Positions 8,335 to 37,913 of a stretch of DNA of 64,000 nt are shown here, piece after piece; positions within the stretch are counted from its first letter, which is position 1; each line of letters opens with the position of its first letter. This stretch comes from a bacterium. Lineage in GTDB: Bacteria; UBA8248. The notes beneath the pieces were generated by a model. That model was not told the origin of the DNA. It searched no databases and worked only from the letters and a program-made list of their open reading frames with translations. Both the position numbers and the translations under genes were made by a program. The stretch spans positions 800,001-864,000 of the forward strand of contig OZ241326.1 of assembly GCA_965199855.1 (NCBI GenBank). Reading direction: 5' to 3'.

Positions 8335-8373
8335 CAAATTCAGACAAATTCACGACCTTTTCCGACAAATTCA
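8335..8373 (+). repeat. Phased CAAATTCA direct repeats
   Basis: Copies at 8335, 8345 and 8366; the same motif and spacing occur at 37854-37913. Confidence 0.7.
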
Positions 8374-8682
8374 CAGCTTTTTTCCGTCCTTTTGAAAGCC
8401 GATAGACGCCGGAAGGAGACCTCTGTTCCCTGCGGCGCAATGTGCTTTTTCACACATCACGCGCACCGAATATATCTATTTATATTCAACACGTCAAGAA
8501 AAATATCCACGAATAATCATTCTCACATGATTTTTCTCGCAACCGAAGGAATTTCAATGCGTTATCGATTCGACCGGCGGCGCGGAGCGTCCACCGAAGG
8601 GAAGCCGCCCCGGGAGGGGACCGGAGCCGCTAATTCGTTGATAAGAAATGCGTTGGGGAAAATGGGAGCTCGCGAGAGGGGG

Positions 8683-15808: not shown

Positions 15809-17350
15809 TCATAGAGATTTTCTCCACAGCTCCAGCCCTATGACCAGCGACTCCTCCACCCACAGTTTGAATCTTTCCACCAAAACACCGAAATCATCCA
15901 GATAATTGAACTGGAAAATATCACTACATGACGGCTCCAGTTGAACGAATTCCTCTTCTGACGGGCCGCCGCCCGCCGCCTTTGCGAAAAAAGTGCAGGA
16001 ACAAGCCATGATCCCGCGAAATTCCGGACCATACCCGTGAAACGAGAACAACAGAGTGGTTTTTTCACGATCCCGATTGCTGATTTGTAGCGTATTCCAA
16101 GCTCGATAAGAACTTAAGCTCGCCCAGTATTCGATTTTCTGCGCGGTATTCACTATCTGGGCTTTATAGTAATAAGAATTTTCAGCCGCATCCGAGGCTT
16201 CTCGGTGCCAGACGTCATACCCCAAGTTCAGCTTTATCACTTCAGCTTTGGGCGCTTTTTCAGCATCCACTAGGCGATCTGCGAATTCATCGGGAAGCCT
16301 GCGGAATTCAGCCTTGAGCGCTTTTTCCGTATCCTCCAAGATTTTTGAAAGAACGGTTTGCAGCTTCCGCGCGAATTCAAAAACGCCTCTCATTTTCTGT
16401 GCTTGCTCTTCTTTTCTTTTTCTTAGTTTCTCTCCCGCCGCCTCAATAACGGACAAGACGGGCCTGCGGCCAGCAACCTCATGAACAAGGCCGAGCGCGG
16501 ACAGCAAACTCTTTTTCTGGCGCTCCGACATAAAGTCAACGAGGGGAGAAAGGTCTCCTGAGTCGGCCTTCTCCAGCACATCCAGATAGCTTTCTCTCAA
16601 ATCATTGAATATCACGACCGGAAACAGCCTGCTTCTTAAAAAAATCAGATTTGAAACGGCCCTGGCGACCCGGCCGTTCCCGTCCTGAAAGGGATGAATT
16701 TGAGTAAAGCGATGATGAATCCACGCCGCTTCAATTTCCGGAGGCACATCTTCATCCTCATGTTTTTGATGAATCTCACACAGACGATCCATTTCAGAGG
16801 CGACGTGCTCCGGGGGACAATACTCGTGGATGGTTTCATCTTCGGTAATCGGATTGTTCGACAGGGTCTTCCAGTCCCCTTTTTTCAGCTCGCTCTCAAC
16901 GTATTGGCCTGTATTGTCCACGGCTGAAACATATTTCTGAGATCTCATCAAAGCGGCGTGAAGCTCTTTGATGTATCCAGTCGTCAATCGACGATTTTGG
17001 CCGACGAAATCCATTAAGCCGTCATATACGTTAGCGTGATCTCTTAAAAAACGAATCACCTCTTCTGGAGATTTATCCGTCTTGCCCTTTGGAACAAGAT
17101 CAAGGTTCAGGCCATGCTCGACGAGCAATTGCGTTGTCCCGCGATCAATCGTATAAACGCGCTCAATCACTCCCGTTTCAATCGACCAGCTTCTTTTCAG
17201 CCTTTCGTGAAATTCTTTGAGGGTCTCGGTTTTCTCCAGGGAATGTTTCTGTTCCTGCCAAAGGCCGGACAGGCTCTTCAGCTCCTCGCTGGCCATTTTC
17301 GGCCAGTCCGGCGGCAAATCCTCAATAGGTCTCCACTTATACTCAGGCAT
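15809..17350 (-). CDS. Fic-domain protein with long C-terminal extension
   Basis: Canonical HPFQDGNGRVAR motif; SWSIETG N-terminal motif; low GC. Confidence 0.9.
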   Translation of the reverse strand: MPEYKWRPIEDLPPDWPKMASEELKSLSGLWQEQKHSLEKTETLKEFHERLKRSWSIETGVIERVYTIDRGTTQLLVEHGLNLDLVPKGKTDKSPEEVIRFLRDHANVYDGLMDFVGQNRRLTTGYIKELHAALMRSQKYVSAVDNTGQYVESELKKGDWKTLSNNPITEDETIHEYCPPEHVASEMDRLCEIHQKHEDEDVPPEIEAAWIHHRFTQIHPFQDGNGRVARAVSNLIFLRSRLFPVVIFNDLRESYLDVLEKADSGDLSPLVDFMSERQKKSLLSALGLVHEVAGRRPVLSVIEAAGEKLRKRKEEQAQKMRGVFEFARKLQTVLSKILEDTEKALKAEFRRLPDEFADRLVDAEKAPKAEVIKLNLGYDVWHREASDAAENSYYYKAQIVNTAQKIEYWASLSSYRAWNTLQISNRDREKTTLLFSFHGYGPEFRGIMACSCTFFAKAAGGGPSEEEFVQLEPSCSDIFQFNYLDDFGVLVERFKLWVEESLVIGLELWRKSL

Positions 17351-17482
17351 ATATCTTCTCCCCGGCACCATGCTCGTCAACCTAGAATTATGCCATTTCT
17401 TATCCCACCGGAGTAAACGGCGGAATTGAAAAACCCCTTAACGCCTTCGCGGCGTTCAATTCAGCGTCCTGGATTGAAAGAG

Positions 17483-20259: not shown

Positions 20260-21435
20260 GTGATCATGTATGACAATGTCGTAGCCCATAAAATCGCCGA
20301 GCAAGATCCAAGCGTTCCCCTGACGAACTTCTCTGCCGTCCAGCCCGATACGGCCCTGGAAAGCCTGAACCTGAACTGGCGAGAAAGAGACTTGCCTCAA
20401 AGATTGAGAACGAAGCACGTCCATTGCCTTCACCCCTACCTGGGAAAATTCATTCCGCAAATCGTAGAAATTTTTCTGCGCAAATTTCAGCCGCGGCTGG
20501 TCTATGATCCTTTTTGCGGTTCCGGGACGACTCTCGTCGAAGCGAAAACTTTGGGGATTCGCTCGCTTGGAACCGATATTTCCGCCTTCAACGTCCTGCT
20601 TTCGCGCGCCAAGACGAGCGATTACGACATCAGGACGCTCAAGAATGAAATTCAGGACATCTTGTTCAGACTTTCCATATTCAAGGAGCAATTCGCCGGT
20701 GAGGCGCGCAACGAATATCTGGAGGAATGGTTCTCGGAGCAGGCGAGAAGGGAGCTTCTATGCTATCTGGATTTGATCAAAGATTACGAATATCAAGATT
20801 TGCTCAAGATTATCCTTTCCCGCTCCGCGCGCTCGTCGAGACTCACAACCCACTTTGACCTGGACTTTCCCAAGAAGCCGCAAAAAGAGCCCTACGAATG
20901 CTACAAGCACGGGCGAATCTGCCGGCCGGTTCAGGAAGCCTACAAATTCCTGAAGCGATACACGATCGATACCTTGCGAAGGATTGAAGAGTTCCATCAA
21001 CTAAAGCCGGCAGGCGAGGCGGAAGCACTTCACGGAGACGCCCGGGCCATTGAATTGCCGAACGGGATAGACATGGTCTTTACTTCTCCTCCCTACATCG
21101 GCCTCATCGACTACCACGAACAGCACAGATACGCCTACGAACTGCTCGGTCTGGAAAACAACGAAGCGAAGGAGATAGGCTCCGCAAAAAAAGGGGCCTC
21201 TCAAAAGGCGAAGCGGGAATACATCGAAAGCATCAACGAGGTGCTGTTGCATACGCGCTGCCACATGGCCAAGGACGGGATTATGGCCATCGTGGTGAAC
21301 GACAAATACGGCCTTTACGATCCTTCCCAAGTCGGCTTCGAGGCCATCGGGAGAGTCGAACGGCACGTGAACCGCCGCACGGGCAGACGCGGCGACGCCT
21401 TCTACGAAAGCATCTTGATTTGGAAAAAAGCATGA
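20260..21435 (+). CDS. Amino DNA methyltransferase, probably N4-cytosine
   Basis: HPYLGKF, DPFCGSGTT (motif I) and FTSPPY (motif IV, SPPY type); coupled to the REase by ATGA overlap. Confidence 0.9.
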   Translation: MIMYDNVVAHKIAEQDPSVPLTNFSAVQPDTALESLNLNWRERDLPQRLRTKHVHCLHPYLGKFIPQIVEIFLRKFQPRLVYDPFCGSGTTLVEAKTLGIRSLGTDISAFNVLLSRAKTSDYDIRTLKNEIQDILFRLSIFKEQFAGEARNEYLEEWFSEQARRELLCYLDLIKDYEYQDLLKIILSRSARSSRLTTHFDLDFPKKPQKEPYECYKHGRICRPVQEAYKFLKRYTIDTLRRIEEFHQLKPAGEAEALHGDARAIELPNGIDMVFTSPPYIGLIDYHEQHRYAYELLGLENNEAKEIGSAKKGASQKAKREYIESINEVLLHTRCHMAKDGIMAIVVNDKYGLYDPSQVGFEAIGRVERHVNRRTGRRGDAFYESILIWKKA

Positions 21436-22247
21436 TTGAAAGGGAGACGCGACTTTGCATCAAGGGTTACCTTGAAGGCTTCATCCAAGGCATCATAGAC
21501 GACAAAGCCAGCGCCAGCTTCGATCCCAGAGAGTTGCGGCCATTCAGAAGCGAATCGAAAAAAGCCGATCTGAAGCCCTTCCATGAGTCTCTGCTTCCGG
21601 ACGGATTGCTCAGAATAAGCGAATTCGAAAGGTCGTTTTCCACCAAACTGGGAACGACGTTTGAGGAATGCGCCCGGCTCATCGCCCTCGCCCATCACAA
21701 GCACGCGGAGAGGGCGTATCGCGTTGCGGGTCAAATTTCTCTTGAAGCCGTCAGGTTCATCGAAGAGACGGTCAGCGCGATAGATTCCGGCGGACTGAAG
21801 AGGAGCTACCCAGAACTCATCGAGCAAACGCTCAGGCTTGCGGAGAAGGGGGAGCGCGCGGAAAGGAGCAGCATCGTCGATCTATACATTCTTACGCATG
21901 ACGACGCGAGAATTTTCATCGAGATCAAGAGCCCGAAGCCAAACAAGGGGCAATGCGTGGAAATCATGGGGCGATTGCTTCAGATTCATGGCCTGACTCA
22001 TCGGGAATACCCGAAAATCAAGGCGTATTACGCGACTGCCTACAACCCTTACGGTGTTGAAAAGTCAACATATAAGCACAGCTTCGCCCTGAATTATATG
22101 GACATGGAAAACGAAGTTCTGCTAGGAAGGGATTTTTGGGAGCTGGTCGGCGGAAACGGGACATACGAGGAAATCCTTGAGATTTATCAGGAGGTAGGAC
22201 GGGAAAAGGGACCGGCCATGTTCGAGCAGCTGGCGCTCGGGTATTAG
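21432..22247 (+). CDS. TdeIII/MjaII-family type II restriction endonuclease
   Basis: KPFHESLL, FERSFSTKLG, VDLY...FIEIKSPKPNKGQ, YNPYG, GRDFWELVGG...YEE. Confidence 0.85.
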   Translation: MIERETRLCIKGYLEGFIQGIIDDKASASFDPRELRPFRSESKKADLKPFHESLLPDGLLRISEFERSFSTKLGTTFEECARLIALAHHKHAERAYRVAGQISLEAVRFIEETVSAIDSGGLKRSYPELIEQTLRLAEKGERAERSSIVDLYILTHDDARIFIEIKSPKPNKGQCVEIMGRLLQIHGLTHREYPKIKAYYATAYNPYGVEKSTYKHSFALNYMDMENEVLLGRDFWELVGGNGTYEEILEIYQEVGREKGPAMFEQLALGY

Positions 22248-27278: not shown

Positions 27279-27344
27279 GGGGGCGGCCAGTCGCCTGGCC
27301 ATTTTCCCGATCAGGGGCATCCAATCTTCATTAGGGCCGCCCGG

Positions 27345-27790
27345 AACCCGTAGGGGCGGTTCGGGAACCGCCCGTTGCGGACGATAACGGCGTTGATTCG
27401 GACAACCACAAGGGGTTGTCCCTACGAAATACCCCGCCGTCATTCCGGCGGAAGCCGGAATCCAGAACGGTCGCGTCATTCGAGAAAGACGGGCGGCCGC
27501 CCGATCATTCACCTGACCATCGGCGCAGGGTTTCGTAGGGGGCGCATATATGCGCCCCGAACGGATGAGCGCGCGGGCGCGGAGGCGAAGAATATCCACC
27601 GGATCGGTTGCGCGCGCGTGGCTTCGCAGGGGCGACCCGTCCGCAACCCGTAGGGGCGGTTCGGGAACCGCCCGTTGCGGACGATAACGGCGTTGATTCG
27701 GACAACCACAAGGGGTTGTCCCTACGGATGCGAAACCACCCAACCGTCGCCAGCCTACGCGCGGGGCGCATATATGCGCCCCCTACGAAC
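27345..27790. repeat. REP/BIME-like palindrome cluster, including an exact 82-bp direct repeat
   Basis: GTAG-type REPs (CGTAGGGGCGGTTCGGGAACCGCCC; CGTAGGGGGCGCATATATGCGCCCC) and a CGTC-type REP (CGTCATTCCGGCGGAAGCCGGAATCC); 27345-27426 is identical to 27645-27726. Confidence 0.85.
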
Positions 27791-27817
27791 CCAAAGACCC
27801 CGCCCCGTGAAACGCTC

Positions 27818-27971
27818 GACCCCCGACGCCTTTCGACGCCGGGGGTCTTCCTCGCCATGCCACGCCCCGCCCTGCCAAGCCTGGCCGAGCCATGCCTTGC
27901 CCTACCTTGCCGCGCCGTGCCCCGCCTGGCCAAACCTAGCCGTGCCCTGCCGGGCCACGCCTCGCCATGCC
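27818..27971 (-). ncRNA. GGY-NN pentamer array 2 (24 units) with 3' hairpin; putative guide RNA
   Basis: 27852-27971 holds 24 contiguous units (22 GGC-NN, 2 GGT-NN), then GGAAG and a 13-bp stem with a GAAA loop (27818-27847). Confidence 0.75.
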
Positions 27972-28010
27972 TCGAACTGTCAGTTTCTCACGCTTCGCGT
28001 CGTTTTCAAT

Positions 28011-28125
28011 GAGCGCGGGGGTAATATATTCGGGCCCCCGCTCCCCTTCCTCGCCAAGCCTCGCCTCGCCAAGCCTCGCCGAGCCCAGCCACGCCTTGCC
28101 ATGCCCAGCCGAGCCACGCCCCGCC
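28011..28125 (-). ncRNA. GGY-NN pentamer array 1 (15 units) with 3' hairpin; putative guide RNA
   Basis: 28051-28125 holds 15 contiguous GGC-NN units starting 3 nt after the stop of the RAMP-like gene, then GGAAG and a hairpin at 28011-28043. Confidence 0.75.
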
Positions 28126-28128
28126 CCG

Positions 28129-28728
28129 CTAATCCGTCAACGCCTCGATGCTCTCCGTCTCGAAGCGTCCATAGACGCCGGATTTCTCCGGCCGCCAGTC
28201 GCCCAGGCCGATGCGGCGGCCGGCGATGTCCAGCCACGCTTCCAGCTGGCTCTGATCGACGAGCTCGTCATCCGCCTCGACGACGAACGCCACCCCCCAT
28301 TCGTCGAATTTCGCCCGCGTTCGCAGGACGCGGCTGCGCTGGACGACGACGCCCGTCGTGAACTGCGCGGTCTTGGCGAGCGCCTCCGCCGTCGCTCCCA
28401 TGCTCCTGTCGTAGGAGAACTCCTCGACTTTCTCCACGAGCATCCCCTCGCGCACCTGCGGGCCCTGCTTCAGCTTTCGCGCGCCCGTTTCGATGGCCGC
28501 CCTGAGCATGCCTTCCGGGACGGTAGGCCCGCCGTCCGCGTCGAGATAGAGACTGGTGAGGCAGTCGAGCTCCCGGAGCCGGGCTTCGTCGGACTCCGTG
28601 CGGTTGCTCCCCCGCTTTCGCGCGATTTCCGCCTTCTCGACGTTGGCAGGGGATCGCGCGTCGAGTCCAGCCGCGCCGTTGTGCATGATGAGCGGTCTGA
28701 TGCCCCTGATTTTGATTCTGTATCGCAT
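28129..28728 (-). CDS. Stand-alone Cas7/RAMP-like RNA-binding protein (199 aa)
   Basis: GGGGAGAGG RBS; N-terminal strand YRIKIRGIRPLIMHN; PTVPEGMLRAAI; thumb-like VVVQRSRVLRTRAKF; C-terminal Gly-rich loop IGLGDWRPEKSGVYGRF. This is the motif order of Cas7-group RAMPs. The gene is hidden at the end of the 717-aa ORF in the track. Confidence 0.75.
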   Translation of the reverse strand: MRYRIKIRGIRPLIMHNGAAGLDARSPANVEKAEIARKRGSNRTESDEARLRELDCLTSLYLDADGGPTVPEGMLRAAIETGARKLKQGPQVREGMLVEKVEEFSYDRSMGATAEALAKTAQFTTGVVVQRSRVLRTRAKFDEWGVAFVVEADDELVDQSQLEAWLDIAGRRIGLGDWRPEKSGVYGRFETESIEALTD

Positions 28729-29129
28729 TTCCTCTCCCCTGAATGTTCGCCCGTCCGCCGCCGGGACGCCGGCAGAGGATCGGGCCTCAAGTCGGGCCGC
28801 CCCTCGGCGCGTGATGAGCGGCCCAGCATCCCCGGCGTCTCCGCCGTTTCCGACTGCGCCGCGGCTTCCCTGAACGCGGCCATGAATTGATGCGGGTCGC
28901 CGCCGTATTTCTCGATGTGGCGGCGCAAGGTGGTCGCCGCTTGATGGCATACCCCGCAAAGCGCGGTGAGATCGTTCGCCGTGAGCTCCCCCGGCTTCGG
29001 ATACCGCCATGCCCAATGATGCGCTTCCTCGGCGGGCCGTAGTCCGCAGAACTGGCACCTGCCCCCGCTTCGGGCGAAGGCTTCCGCCCGCGCCGCCTCG
29101 TAATTCGGCCCGTAGGTCGATTCCTTCAT
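28470..29129 (-). CDS. HNH endonuclease (Zn-binding) with low-complexity tail overlapping the RAMP gene
   Basis: GGGAGGG RBS; RSGGRCQFCG...EAHH...DLTALCGVCH (CxxC-HH-CxxCH). Confidence 0.8.
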   Translation of the reverse strand: MKESTYGPNYEAARAEAFARSGGRCQFCGLRPAEEAHHWAWRYPKPGELTANDLTALCGVCHQAATTLRRHIEKYGGDPHQFMAAFREAAAQSETAETPGMLGRSSRAEGRPDLRPDPLPASRRRTGEHSGERKCDTESKSGASDRSSCTTARLDSTRDPLPTSRRRKSRESGGATARSPTKPGSGSSTASPVSISTRTAGLPSRKACSGRPSKRARES

Positions 29130-29237
29130 GCGCCCTCCCGAATGAGAAAAACCGAAGATAGCATAAATCGCCCGGCGCGGTGATCCGCAGGGGCGGGGGC
29201 TCGCCCCGGCCATTTTCCCGATCATCGGCGGAAGGTT

Positions 29238-29380
29238 CCGTAGGGGCGGTTCGTGAACCGCCCGTTGCGGATGTCCACGGAAAAACGGGGCGTTCACGAA
29301 CGCCCCCTACGAAATCAATCGCCGACCTGCGGGCGGGTCGCATATATGCGTGGGACGCGCCTCTTGGCGCGTCACCTACG
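29238..29380. repeat. REP-like palindrome cluster
   Basis: CGTAGGGGCGGTTCGTGAACCGCCC, inverted partner GGGGCGTTCACGAACGCCCCCTACG, and a degenerate GCATATATGC copy. Confidence 0.8.
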
Positions 29381-29494
29381 GAAGCAAATATCCCGCCCCG
29401 TGACGGACGCCCCCGCCGCGCGTGGCGTCCCCGGGGCGGGGCTGGTAGAATCGGCGCGGAACCCTTGGATACCCCAACGCGGAAGGACGCGCCC

Positions 29495-37853: not shown

Positions 37854-37913
37854 CAAAATCCGACAAATTCACGGCCTTATCCCGCAAATTCACGCCTTTT
37901 TTCGACAAATTCA
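37854..37913 (+). repeat. Phased CAAATTCA direct repeats
   Basis: Copies at 37854 (degenerate), 37864, 37885 and 37906, followed by AT-rich AAGTCATTGAAAATAAA. Confidence 0.7.

Follow-up and report, generated by a model that had tools for sequence, protein, structure and literature searches.

Introduction

VIPR (Viral Interference Programmable Repeat) systems were described only in 2026, in a group of bioRxiv preprints, three of them on VIPR itself and a fourth in which VIPR arrays are recovered (10.64898/2026.04.26.720920, 10.64898/2026.04.26.720927, 10.64898/2026.10.15.759431 and 10.64898/2026.10.21.760802), and experiments so far have dealt with phage-borne silencing systems only. At their centre is Vipr, a RAMP protein of ∼20 kDa that polymerises on vrRNAs of 9-16 YNNGG units, holding the GGY bases and presenting the NN dinucleotides, with double-stranded DNA (dsDNA) being read with one skipped base between dinucleotides (10.64898/2026.04.26.720920). 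Here we analyse a window of 64,000 nucleotides (nt), positions 800,001 to 864,000 of contig OZ241326.1 (assembly GCA_965199855.1), from a bacterium of the GTDB lineage UBA8248. It carries a vipr gene preceded by an overlapping gene for an HNH protein and followed by two YNNGG arrays, and this locus is very probably a chromosomal VIPR system of the HNH-accessory class.

Seven types of VIPR have been distinguished; predicted enzymes occur in types III-V, and nucleases in types III and V alone. The two nuclease-bearing types are interpreted as host defence in which the target is destroyed, and types II and VII as DNA binders; the sole mechanism shown experimentally is transcriptional repression, and 25.5% of the published loci are chromosomal (10.64898/2026.04.26.720920). 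In the accessible part of the same preprint, the legend of fig. S21 names an HNH domain among the accessory (vap) proteins of types II, III and VII. For the Vipr protein of SUSP1, cryo-electron microscopy and mutagenesis have assigned the GGY contacts to H17, R138, D177, W178 and R179, and K33 is described as an alpha-bundle lysine that contacts the target backbone (10.64898/2026.04.26.720927, accessible part).

Organisation of the locus

The cassette occupies ∼1.4 kb of a genome of 3,043,534 bp with 67.3% G+C. Its features are as follows, with coordinates referring, here and below, to the window unless genome positions are specified.

28470..29129, minus strand: HNH accessory (vap-like) gene, 219 amino acids, ATG at 29129 (Pfam, PHROG, AlphaFold2)
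28129..28728, stop included, minus strand: vipr gene, RAMP protein of 199 amino acids (homology, AlphaFold2 model, Foldseek)
28049..28128, minus strand: vrRNA A guide region, 16 YNNGG units, beginning 1 nt past the vipr TAG stop
28011..28048, minus strand: vrRNA A 3' tail, AAGGGG motif followed by a 7-bp hairpin
27850..27974, minus strand: vrRNA B guide region, 25 YNNGG units
27818..27849, minus strand: vrRNA B 3' tail, terminator-like 13-bp hairpin
27283..29407, strand not given: intergenic stretch from a short-chain dehydrogenase/reductase (SDR) gene to a zinc-dependent alcohol dehydrogenase (Zn-ADH) gene, holding the cassette and flanking repeats that resemble repetitive extragenic palindromic (REP) elements

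A spacer of 36 nt separates the vrRNA A tail from array B. A preliminary description of this DNA had placed an HNH start at 29129 on the minus strand and a 199-residue gene at 28728-28129, and both are present in the sequence. It had counted in the register GGC-NN or GGY-NN, giving 15 perfect GGC-NN units from 3 nt past the stop and then 24 GGY-NN units; in the published YNNGG register these are the same tracts, with 16 units (28128..28049) and 25 units (27974..27850). The hairpin that it had noticed after each array is now located, with stems at 28041-28035/28021-28015 for the first and at 27847..27818 for the second. Its order of genes, HNH first and the 199-residue gene after it, stands as well. 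The HNH gene does not end before vipr: its frame reaches 28470 and overlaps vipr by 259 nt. The further statement that the window holds neither cas genes nor a CRISPR array was checked in part: Tandem Repeats Finder found no CRISPR-like repeat in the window, and Pfam found no cas gene among the open reading frames (ORFs) between 13 and 45 kb of it.

The Vipr protein

The 199-residue protein is a Vipr homologue with, as sequence comparison and modelling indicate, a Cas7/Csm3-like RAMP fold. Its only real match among PDB sequences is 36pp (36pp_D), the 'SUSP1 Vipr protein' (E 7.9e-17, query residues 4-192 against 5-188). PHROG 4652, a family of unknown function, matches it at E 3.3e-36; Pfam and PADLOC returned no match. 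In the 36pp alignment SUSP1 H17 falls on H16, and R138, D177, W178 and R179 fall on residues of the same number, so that five of the six functionally named SUSP1 residues are kept. The G-loop is present as GLGDWRP, in which GDWRP is identical to SUSP1 Vipr. Across 66 aligned, diverse relatives R138 never varies, and at least 90% of them retain each of D177 and R179. The AlphaFold2 model has a predicted local distance difference test (pLDDT) score of 97.7 and a predicted template modelling (pTM) score of 0.91, and Foldseek places only Cas7-type RAMPs at the top of its PDB matches, namely type VII Cas7, Csm3 and Cmr4 (E from 3.5e-5, TM score 0.45-0.55, probability 1.0), in keeping with the minimal RAMP fold of a Vipr, which has a single RRM core, a thumb and a glycine-rich loop.

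The preliminary description had taken this protein for a RAMP of the Cas7/Csm3 group, and the modelling and Foldseek check upheld this, only Cas7, Csm3 and Cmr4 folds appearing at the top. The motifs on which it had relied, PLIMH and GLGDWRP, contain published GGY-contact residues, and the name VIPR, which it had suggested, proves to be correct and is in print in the 2026 bioRxiv preprints. Its model of one subunit for each 5 nt, with GGY held and NN displayed as a discontinuous guide, is the published model of VIPR (10.64898/2026.04.26.720920, 10.64898/2026.04.26.720927).

Relatives of the protein are many: 1155 homologues at E<=1e-3 in a collection clustered at 90%, and 3019 at E<=1e-3 among 50%-identity representatives, 1043 of these at <=1e-10. 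A pattern-limited search of IMG/VR gave only two distant matches. Within the source genome, tblastn detects a single vipr.

The HNH gene and its overlap with vipr

The HNH ORF is recognised by Pfam only below the cut-off (HNH, E 0.0065) and by PHROG HNH families at E values down to 2.6e-6, with no match in PADLOC. All of 50 HNH homologues have C25, C28, H37, H38 and C58, and at least 90% of them retain each of C61 and H62; these residues are the zinc ligands, in two CxxC pairs, and the catalytic histidines. AlphaFold2 folds residues ∼8-96 with pLDDT above 90 and leaves a tail, at pLDDT 47-64, that is predicted to be disordered. The nearest solved folds are those of Cas5-HNH and type I-E HNH Cascade (E 8.5e-4, 26-31% identity), with T4 endonuclease VII, a phage HNH protein and IscB next in order. 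At 2278119-2278319 on its minus strand, far from any array, the genome encodes a second HNH paralogue that shares 48% identity with the VIPR-linked HNH over 67 residues.

The frame of the HNH gene ends 259 nt inside vipr, at 28470, so that its last ∼86 codons are read in the +1 frame of vipr. This arrangement recurs in the related loci described below. The HNH frame is +1 relative to vipr in all 60 HNH-bearing loci, and its stop lies mostly 235-259 nt inside vipr. Over nt 1-231 of vipr the +1 frame is free of stops in 53 of these 60 loci (mean 0.20 stops), compared with seven of 60 for the +2 frame (mean 2.18). Where HNH is lacking, only 3/19 loci have a stop-free +1 frame (mean 1.32). Past nt 261 of vipr the +1 frame has a mean of 3.98 stops. 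The +1 frame thus looks, from this pattern of stops in the two alternative frames, to have been kept open by selection acting on an overprinted HNH tail of about 80 residues that is rich in S, T, P and R. No mention of such an overlap was found in the accessible parts of the VIPR preprints, and the conserved overprinting of HNH and vipr may be new.

The HNH protein of the window also has an insert of 42 residues that the other 49 sequences lack. Just upstream of the vipr ATG, ∼77 nt within 28729-28860 (minus strand) are a diverged copy of vipr nt 33-112, with a local score of 48 against a shuffled maximum of 29, and we attribute the insert to this partial duplication of vipr.

The arrays and their tails

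A regular expression for at least six YNNGG units, run over both strands of the whole 3,043,534-bp genome, finds five arrays, whereas a first-order Markov simulated genome of the same length contains none; a chance origin of the arrays is thereby excluded. The NN positions vary inside each array. Three of the five stand alone:

genome 672385-672464, minus strand: stand-alone array, 16 units
genome 1022847-1022916, plus strand: stand-alone array, 14 units
genome 1193131-1193215, plus strand: stand-alone array, 17 units

These three share a module of ∼290 nt that comprises a conserved leader of ∼110 nt, the array, a tail of the array A family and a terminator hairpin; the modules span genome 672,285-672,575, 1,022,737-1,023,016 and 1,193,026-1,193,310. 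Genes recognised by Pfam in their vicinity serve metabolism or transport; some nearby ORFs have no match. Upstream of each array, at a distance of ∼0.5-0.9 kb, are small same-strand ORFs with signal-peptide-like N-termini. That a vipr-bearing chromosome also encodes vrRNAs in trans may be a new feature.

The hairpin after array B is a stable one (−31 kcal/mol, z −4.68), with none of 200 shuffles as stable, and the tail of array A folds as a single sequence at −18.4 kcal/mol with a weak z of −1.25. The tails of arrays A, C, D and E share a motif and a 7-bp stem that includes one compensatory pair, in a comparison of four sequences only, for which single-sequence z-scores are weak. Rfam returned no relevant family at E<=1, and no hammerhead, either at the locus or at the stand-alone arrays.

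Related loci across phyla

One scan of species-representative genomes gave 80 related loci, with proteins 54-77% identical. By record title they belong to Chloroflexota (Dehalococcoidia, Caldilineaceae, Tepidiformaceae and SAR202), to Alpha- and Gammaproteobacteria, and to Binatia, Thermodesulfobacteriota, Acidimicrobiia and Vicinamibacterales; they span at least six phyla and lie mostly in genomes labelled as sponge-associated. An HNH homologue is found upstream of vipr in 60 of the 80.

The association with arrays, defined here as perfect runs of at least five YNNGG units, is close. In 68 of the 80 loci an array on the same strand starts within 300 nt of the vipr stop, at distances of 0-84 nt, which answers the check set by the preliminary description, that pentamer arrays should lie downstream in homologues. 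Ten loci have an array within 600 nt upstream of vipr. Counted anywhere in the locus, same-strand arrays are present in 77/80 and opposite-strand arrays in 2/80, and three loci (L005, L060 and L080) have no array, while the distant flanks, more than 1.5 kb from the gene, hold a single array in 220,401 nt. In L012 and L054 the arrays come directly past the homologous region, yet inside an extended frame. The relatives carry strings of vrRNAs, each closing with a conserved last unit and a short tail, with up to eight array runs. In L007, L010 and L043 vrRNA arrays (about 2480-2715) lie upstream of the HNH gene and not downstream of vipr.

These loci form a cross-phylum clade for which genome titles, together with the labels of sequencing runs, point to sponge microbiomes, and this too may be a new feature.

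Genomic context and strain variation

Around the cassette are genes for SDR, MaoC-type dehydratases, acyl-CoA synthetase, Zn-ADH, fumarase and aconitase. The nearest defence-like genes, ∼6 kb away, encode a DNA methylase (20260-21432, plus strand) and a TdeIII-type restriction endonuclease (21420-22244, plus strand), which make up a type II restriction-modification pair; a Fic/DOC protein is encoded at 15812-17380 (minus strand), ∼11 kb from the cassette. Outside the window, ∼150 kb from the VIPR locus, the genome has a cas1 gene (PF01867, E 7.1e-25, genome 978061-978717), and near it, at genome ∼981,200-981,360, a CRISPR-like array in which one 20-mer occurs 23 times at a spacing of 50-90 nt. 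Two short tandem repeats of period 21, with related units, are present in the window at 8339-8381 and 37860-37913.

REP-like palindromic repeats flank the cassette at 27337-27426, 27637-27726 and 29234-29300. The two 90-nt copies are 97.8% identical, and short cores (28-39 nt) are repeated dozens of times over the genome. Neither a recombinase nor a transposase was seen adjoining the cassette. In metagenome contigs one bin, 29212-29265, shows very high depth.

Among 41 related genomes vipr was found only in the source genome (G000), and neither it nor the cassette was found in any of the 22 other genomes of the same genus. The gap between the SDR and ADH genes is 79-525 nt in five same-genus genomes, compared with 2125 nt here. 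In the closest of them, G001, whose flanks are ∼91% identical, the SDR-ADH site carries a solo array of 14 units (L296, G001:C1:434342-434411) with an array-B-type tail and different NN content; the G001 genome has no match to vipr or HNH. A scan of the 41 genomes with a ten-unit motif found variable-NN arrays in G000 and G001 only. Matches in four other genomes were rejected as vrRNA arrays, being simple microsatellites that also matched the reversed control. From the solo vrRNA that stands at the cassette site of G001 without vipr, we reason that either the cassette was gained here beside an existing vrRNA, or it was lost in G001 and left the vrRNA behind. A solo vrRNA remaining at the same site in a sister species may be a new observation.

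Part or all of the stretch is present in 20 sequencing records from nine studies, whose uncoded labels read sponge, marine or plain metagenome. Strains were compared through the contigs of four runs on 27700-29300, and of 148 differences the 40 best supported were listed. Array substitutions in runs X4 and X8 lie at 27857, 27957, 27968, 28086, 28087, 28111 and 28122, and all seven of these listed substitutions fall on NN, to which 40% of array positions belong. Array B also changes in length by whole numbers of units, being 5 nt shorter in X4 and, in X8, having 47 nt replaced by 7 nt for a net change of −40 nt; an array of 25 units whose length differs from strain to strain may be new. In run X9 array A differs by many small indels, so that its differences are not assignable to positions. 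In X4 and X8 some contigs pass directly from 27786/7 to 29234 and so skip the cassette; these joints were left unused as evidence of an empty site, being unreliable because their sides are only 26-32 nt long and lie in REP repeats.

Discussion

What kind of VIPR system is this, and what might it do? Its recognition as VIPR rests on homology, fold, residue conservation, the association with arrays, the conserved overlap and the strain-level variation at NN. As to type, the HNH accessory protein makes the HNH 'type III' class the most likely: because types II and VII bind DNA and only III and V carry nucleases, an HNH vap would fall to type III, a placement that is drawn from the legend of fig. 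S21 in the accessible part of 10.64898/2026.04.26.720920. The preliminary description had considered that a nuclease-linked chromosomal copy would be notable. Such a copy is indeed present; the system is not new in kind, however, since a chromosomal class linked to a nuclease, with HNH as the accessory gene, has already been described.

For the locus we infer transcription, assembly of a ribonucleoprotein (RNP), use of the 1-nt-skip rule in this clade, HNH cleavage and what the targets are, in the following scheme. The HNH-vipr operon would be transcribed together with the two downstream vrRNAs, and the three stand-alone vrRNA genes would be transcribed elsewhere in the genome. Vipr protomers would polymerise along a vrRNA, one for each YNNGG unit, with H16, R138 and the G-loop residues D177-W178-R179 holding the flipped GGY bases; with GGY held by Vipr, the NN dinucleotides would be exposed. 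The filament would then read dsDNA by a gapped code of two paired bases and one skipped. The small HNH nuclease, whose catalytic and zinc-binding residues are intact and whose disordered basic tail would be encoded inside vipr in another frame, would cut the foreign DNA that is bound. On this scheme the cassette would use guide RNAs to defend a sponge-associated bacterium from phages or other mobile elements.

Several results weigh against such a defence system. No target was found for the guides in any search that was made. In the matching regions of five same-genus genomes the five guides score at the null level given by shuffled guides. In IMG/VR, five seeds of eight units gave 19, 20, 21, 38 and 63 hits with extensions at chance level only, the best of them (L139, guide D) reaching 23/28, a score that chance alone would yield in a set of 21 seeded hits; in JGI metagenomes one seed of nine units gave 33 hits, none extending. 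Seeded scans of this kind would miss imperfect targets, because eight or nine perfect units are required. The immediate neighbours of the cassette are metabolic, with no defence island, and none of the 20 sequencing records that contain the locus is listed as RNA. SUSP1 K33, the contact to the DNA backbone, aligns to A33 in the window's protein, with K32 adjoining it. Array B, finally, has 25 units and lies outside the published range of 9-16.

The genome's own DNA was searched as a source of self or REP targets: with 0-3 skipped bases the five guides have no match above chance in the whole genome, the best self scores with a 1-nt skip (21/32, 30/50, 21/32, 21/28 and 22/34) being at the level of unit-shuffled guides, and no guide matches the flanks of the cassette itself.

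A first alternative is that the system binds and silences only, as type II does, with the HNH protein acting as a processing or maturation factor or being an unrelated hitch-hiker. Repression of transcription is, after all, the one VIPR mechanism with experimental proof (10.64898/2026.04.26.720920), and 19 of the 79 scorable related loci have no detectable HNH, most of them still having arrays. Against this, HNH lies directly upstream of vipr in 60 of 80 loci, in a constant relative frame and with a selected overlap into vipr. The invariance of the catalytic His and zinc Cys residues, and the closeness of the fold to the DNA-cutting HNH domains of HNH-Cascade, also weigh against it, and 10.64898/2026.04.26.720920 itself reads the nuclease-bearing types as target-destroying. 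We therefore consider silencing alone to be unlikely.

A second alternative treats the cassette as a selfish mobile element whose vrRNAs guide HNH to empty sites, in a form of RNA-guided homing. The cassette is small (∼1.4 kb), sits in an intergenic site between metabolic genes with REP-like repeats on both flanks, was not found in the 22 other same-genus genomes searched, and has relatives 54-77% identical in at least six phyla, all of which would suit such an element. Against it, all five guides score no better than shuffled ones on the regions around the empty site in five same-genus genomes, and none matches the cassette's own flanks; the lack of any recombinase or transposase seen beside the cassette and the unreliability of the cassette-skipping contig joints tell against it further. 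Homing is in our view very improbable, and clearly less probable than silencing alone. The last alternative, that the pentamers are nothing more than G+C-rich microsatellites or repeats of REP type lying beside a RAMP-like gene by chance, could appeal to a genome of 67% G+C rich in REP-like repeats and to the simple (CTCGG)n-type microsatellites of related genomes, but it is refuted by the array-free simulated genome, by the 80-locus counts (arrays after the gene in 68, against one array in 220 kb of distant flank) and by the reversed-control scan, which true microsatellites also match, as well as by the varying NN within arrays, and its probability is negligible.

Returning to a nuclease-linked chromosomal VIPR system, we put forward a fuller picture, tentatively and with rather less than even confidence: a minimal defence distributed over the chromosome, made up of one 1.4-kb cassette and five vrRNA genes, with an overprinted nuclease tail, guide change free of Cas1 and Cas2, and movement across phyla. 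In this picture the overprinting of the HNH tail may make production of the nuclease and of Vipr interdependent, or may keep the nuclease attached to the filament. The guides may diversify without Cas1 or Cas2, through point changes at NN and through gain or loss of whole units, and the cassette may move between phyla in sponge microbiomes, its loss being able to leave a solo vrRNA.

The locus offers a compact natural example of the nuclease-linked chromosomal VIPR class. It raises the questions of whether an HNH partner turns gapped-code binding into cutting, whether a conserved overlap of ∼80 codons links nuclease and backbone, whether one effector uses distant guides, and how guides change without an adaptation module. 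Because the clade is large and well conserved, it should be useful in comparative studies and in the selection of small programmable DNA-cutting modules.

Comparison with known systems

The locus has in common with published type III VIPR a Vipr homologue with the GGY-contact residues and a two-gene chromosomal layout of vipr and one accessory (HNH) gene, and in common with VIPR generally the variable-NN YNNGG arrays beside the gene, each followed by a 3' tail that is predicted to fold. No self-targets were found here, and types III and V are reported likewise in the accessible part of 10.64898/2026.04.26.720920. There are differences, however. One nuclease-bearing type, by our reading type III, seems from the text of that preprint to have a single vrRNA, whereas here there are two in cis and three in trans; published arrays have 9-16 units and one array here has 25; and published type III is enriched in defence islands, a property of the family as a whole, whereas this locus lies outside one.

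The type II VIPR of SUSP1 and P. fulva, for which experimental characterisation exists, has a Vipr of nearly equal length (202 amino acids, compared with 199 here) that is directly homologous (E 7.9e-17). It is phage-borne, however, with a DNA-binding, winged-helix-like (WH-like) vap, transcriptional repression and a pseudoknot tail, in contrast to the HNH nuclease and chromosomal setting of the present system. The stand-alone vrRNAs resemble the orphan vrRNAs of satellites and VIPR-null phages (10.64898/2026.10.15.759431, accessible part) in lying far from any vipr, and the solo vrRNA of G001, in a genome without detectable vipr, resembles them as well. The published orphans hijack the Vipr of another element, some of them targeting REP decoys, according to the same accessible part; those here, in contrast, lie between metabolic genes, have a vipr in the same genome and show no REP or self match.

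Beyond VIPR, the closest parallel is with class 1 CRISPR-Cas and with HNH-Cascade (Cas5-HNH, in variants of types I-E and I-F). These have a RAMP backbone polymerised on a guide RNA, as the present system would, and with HNH-Cascade an HNH nuclease is shared too. Class 1 systems have in addition Cas5, Cas6, Cas8, Cas11, a repeat-spacer array and adaptation genes, none of which is present at this locus, and the HNH here is a separate small protein, unlike Cas5-HNH. The guide code differs as well, being a gapped 2+1 for VIPR compared with 5+1 for class 1 CRISPR-Cas.

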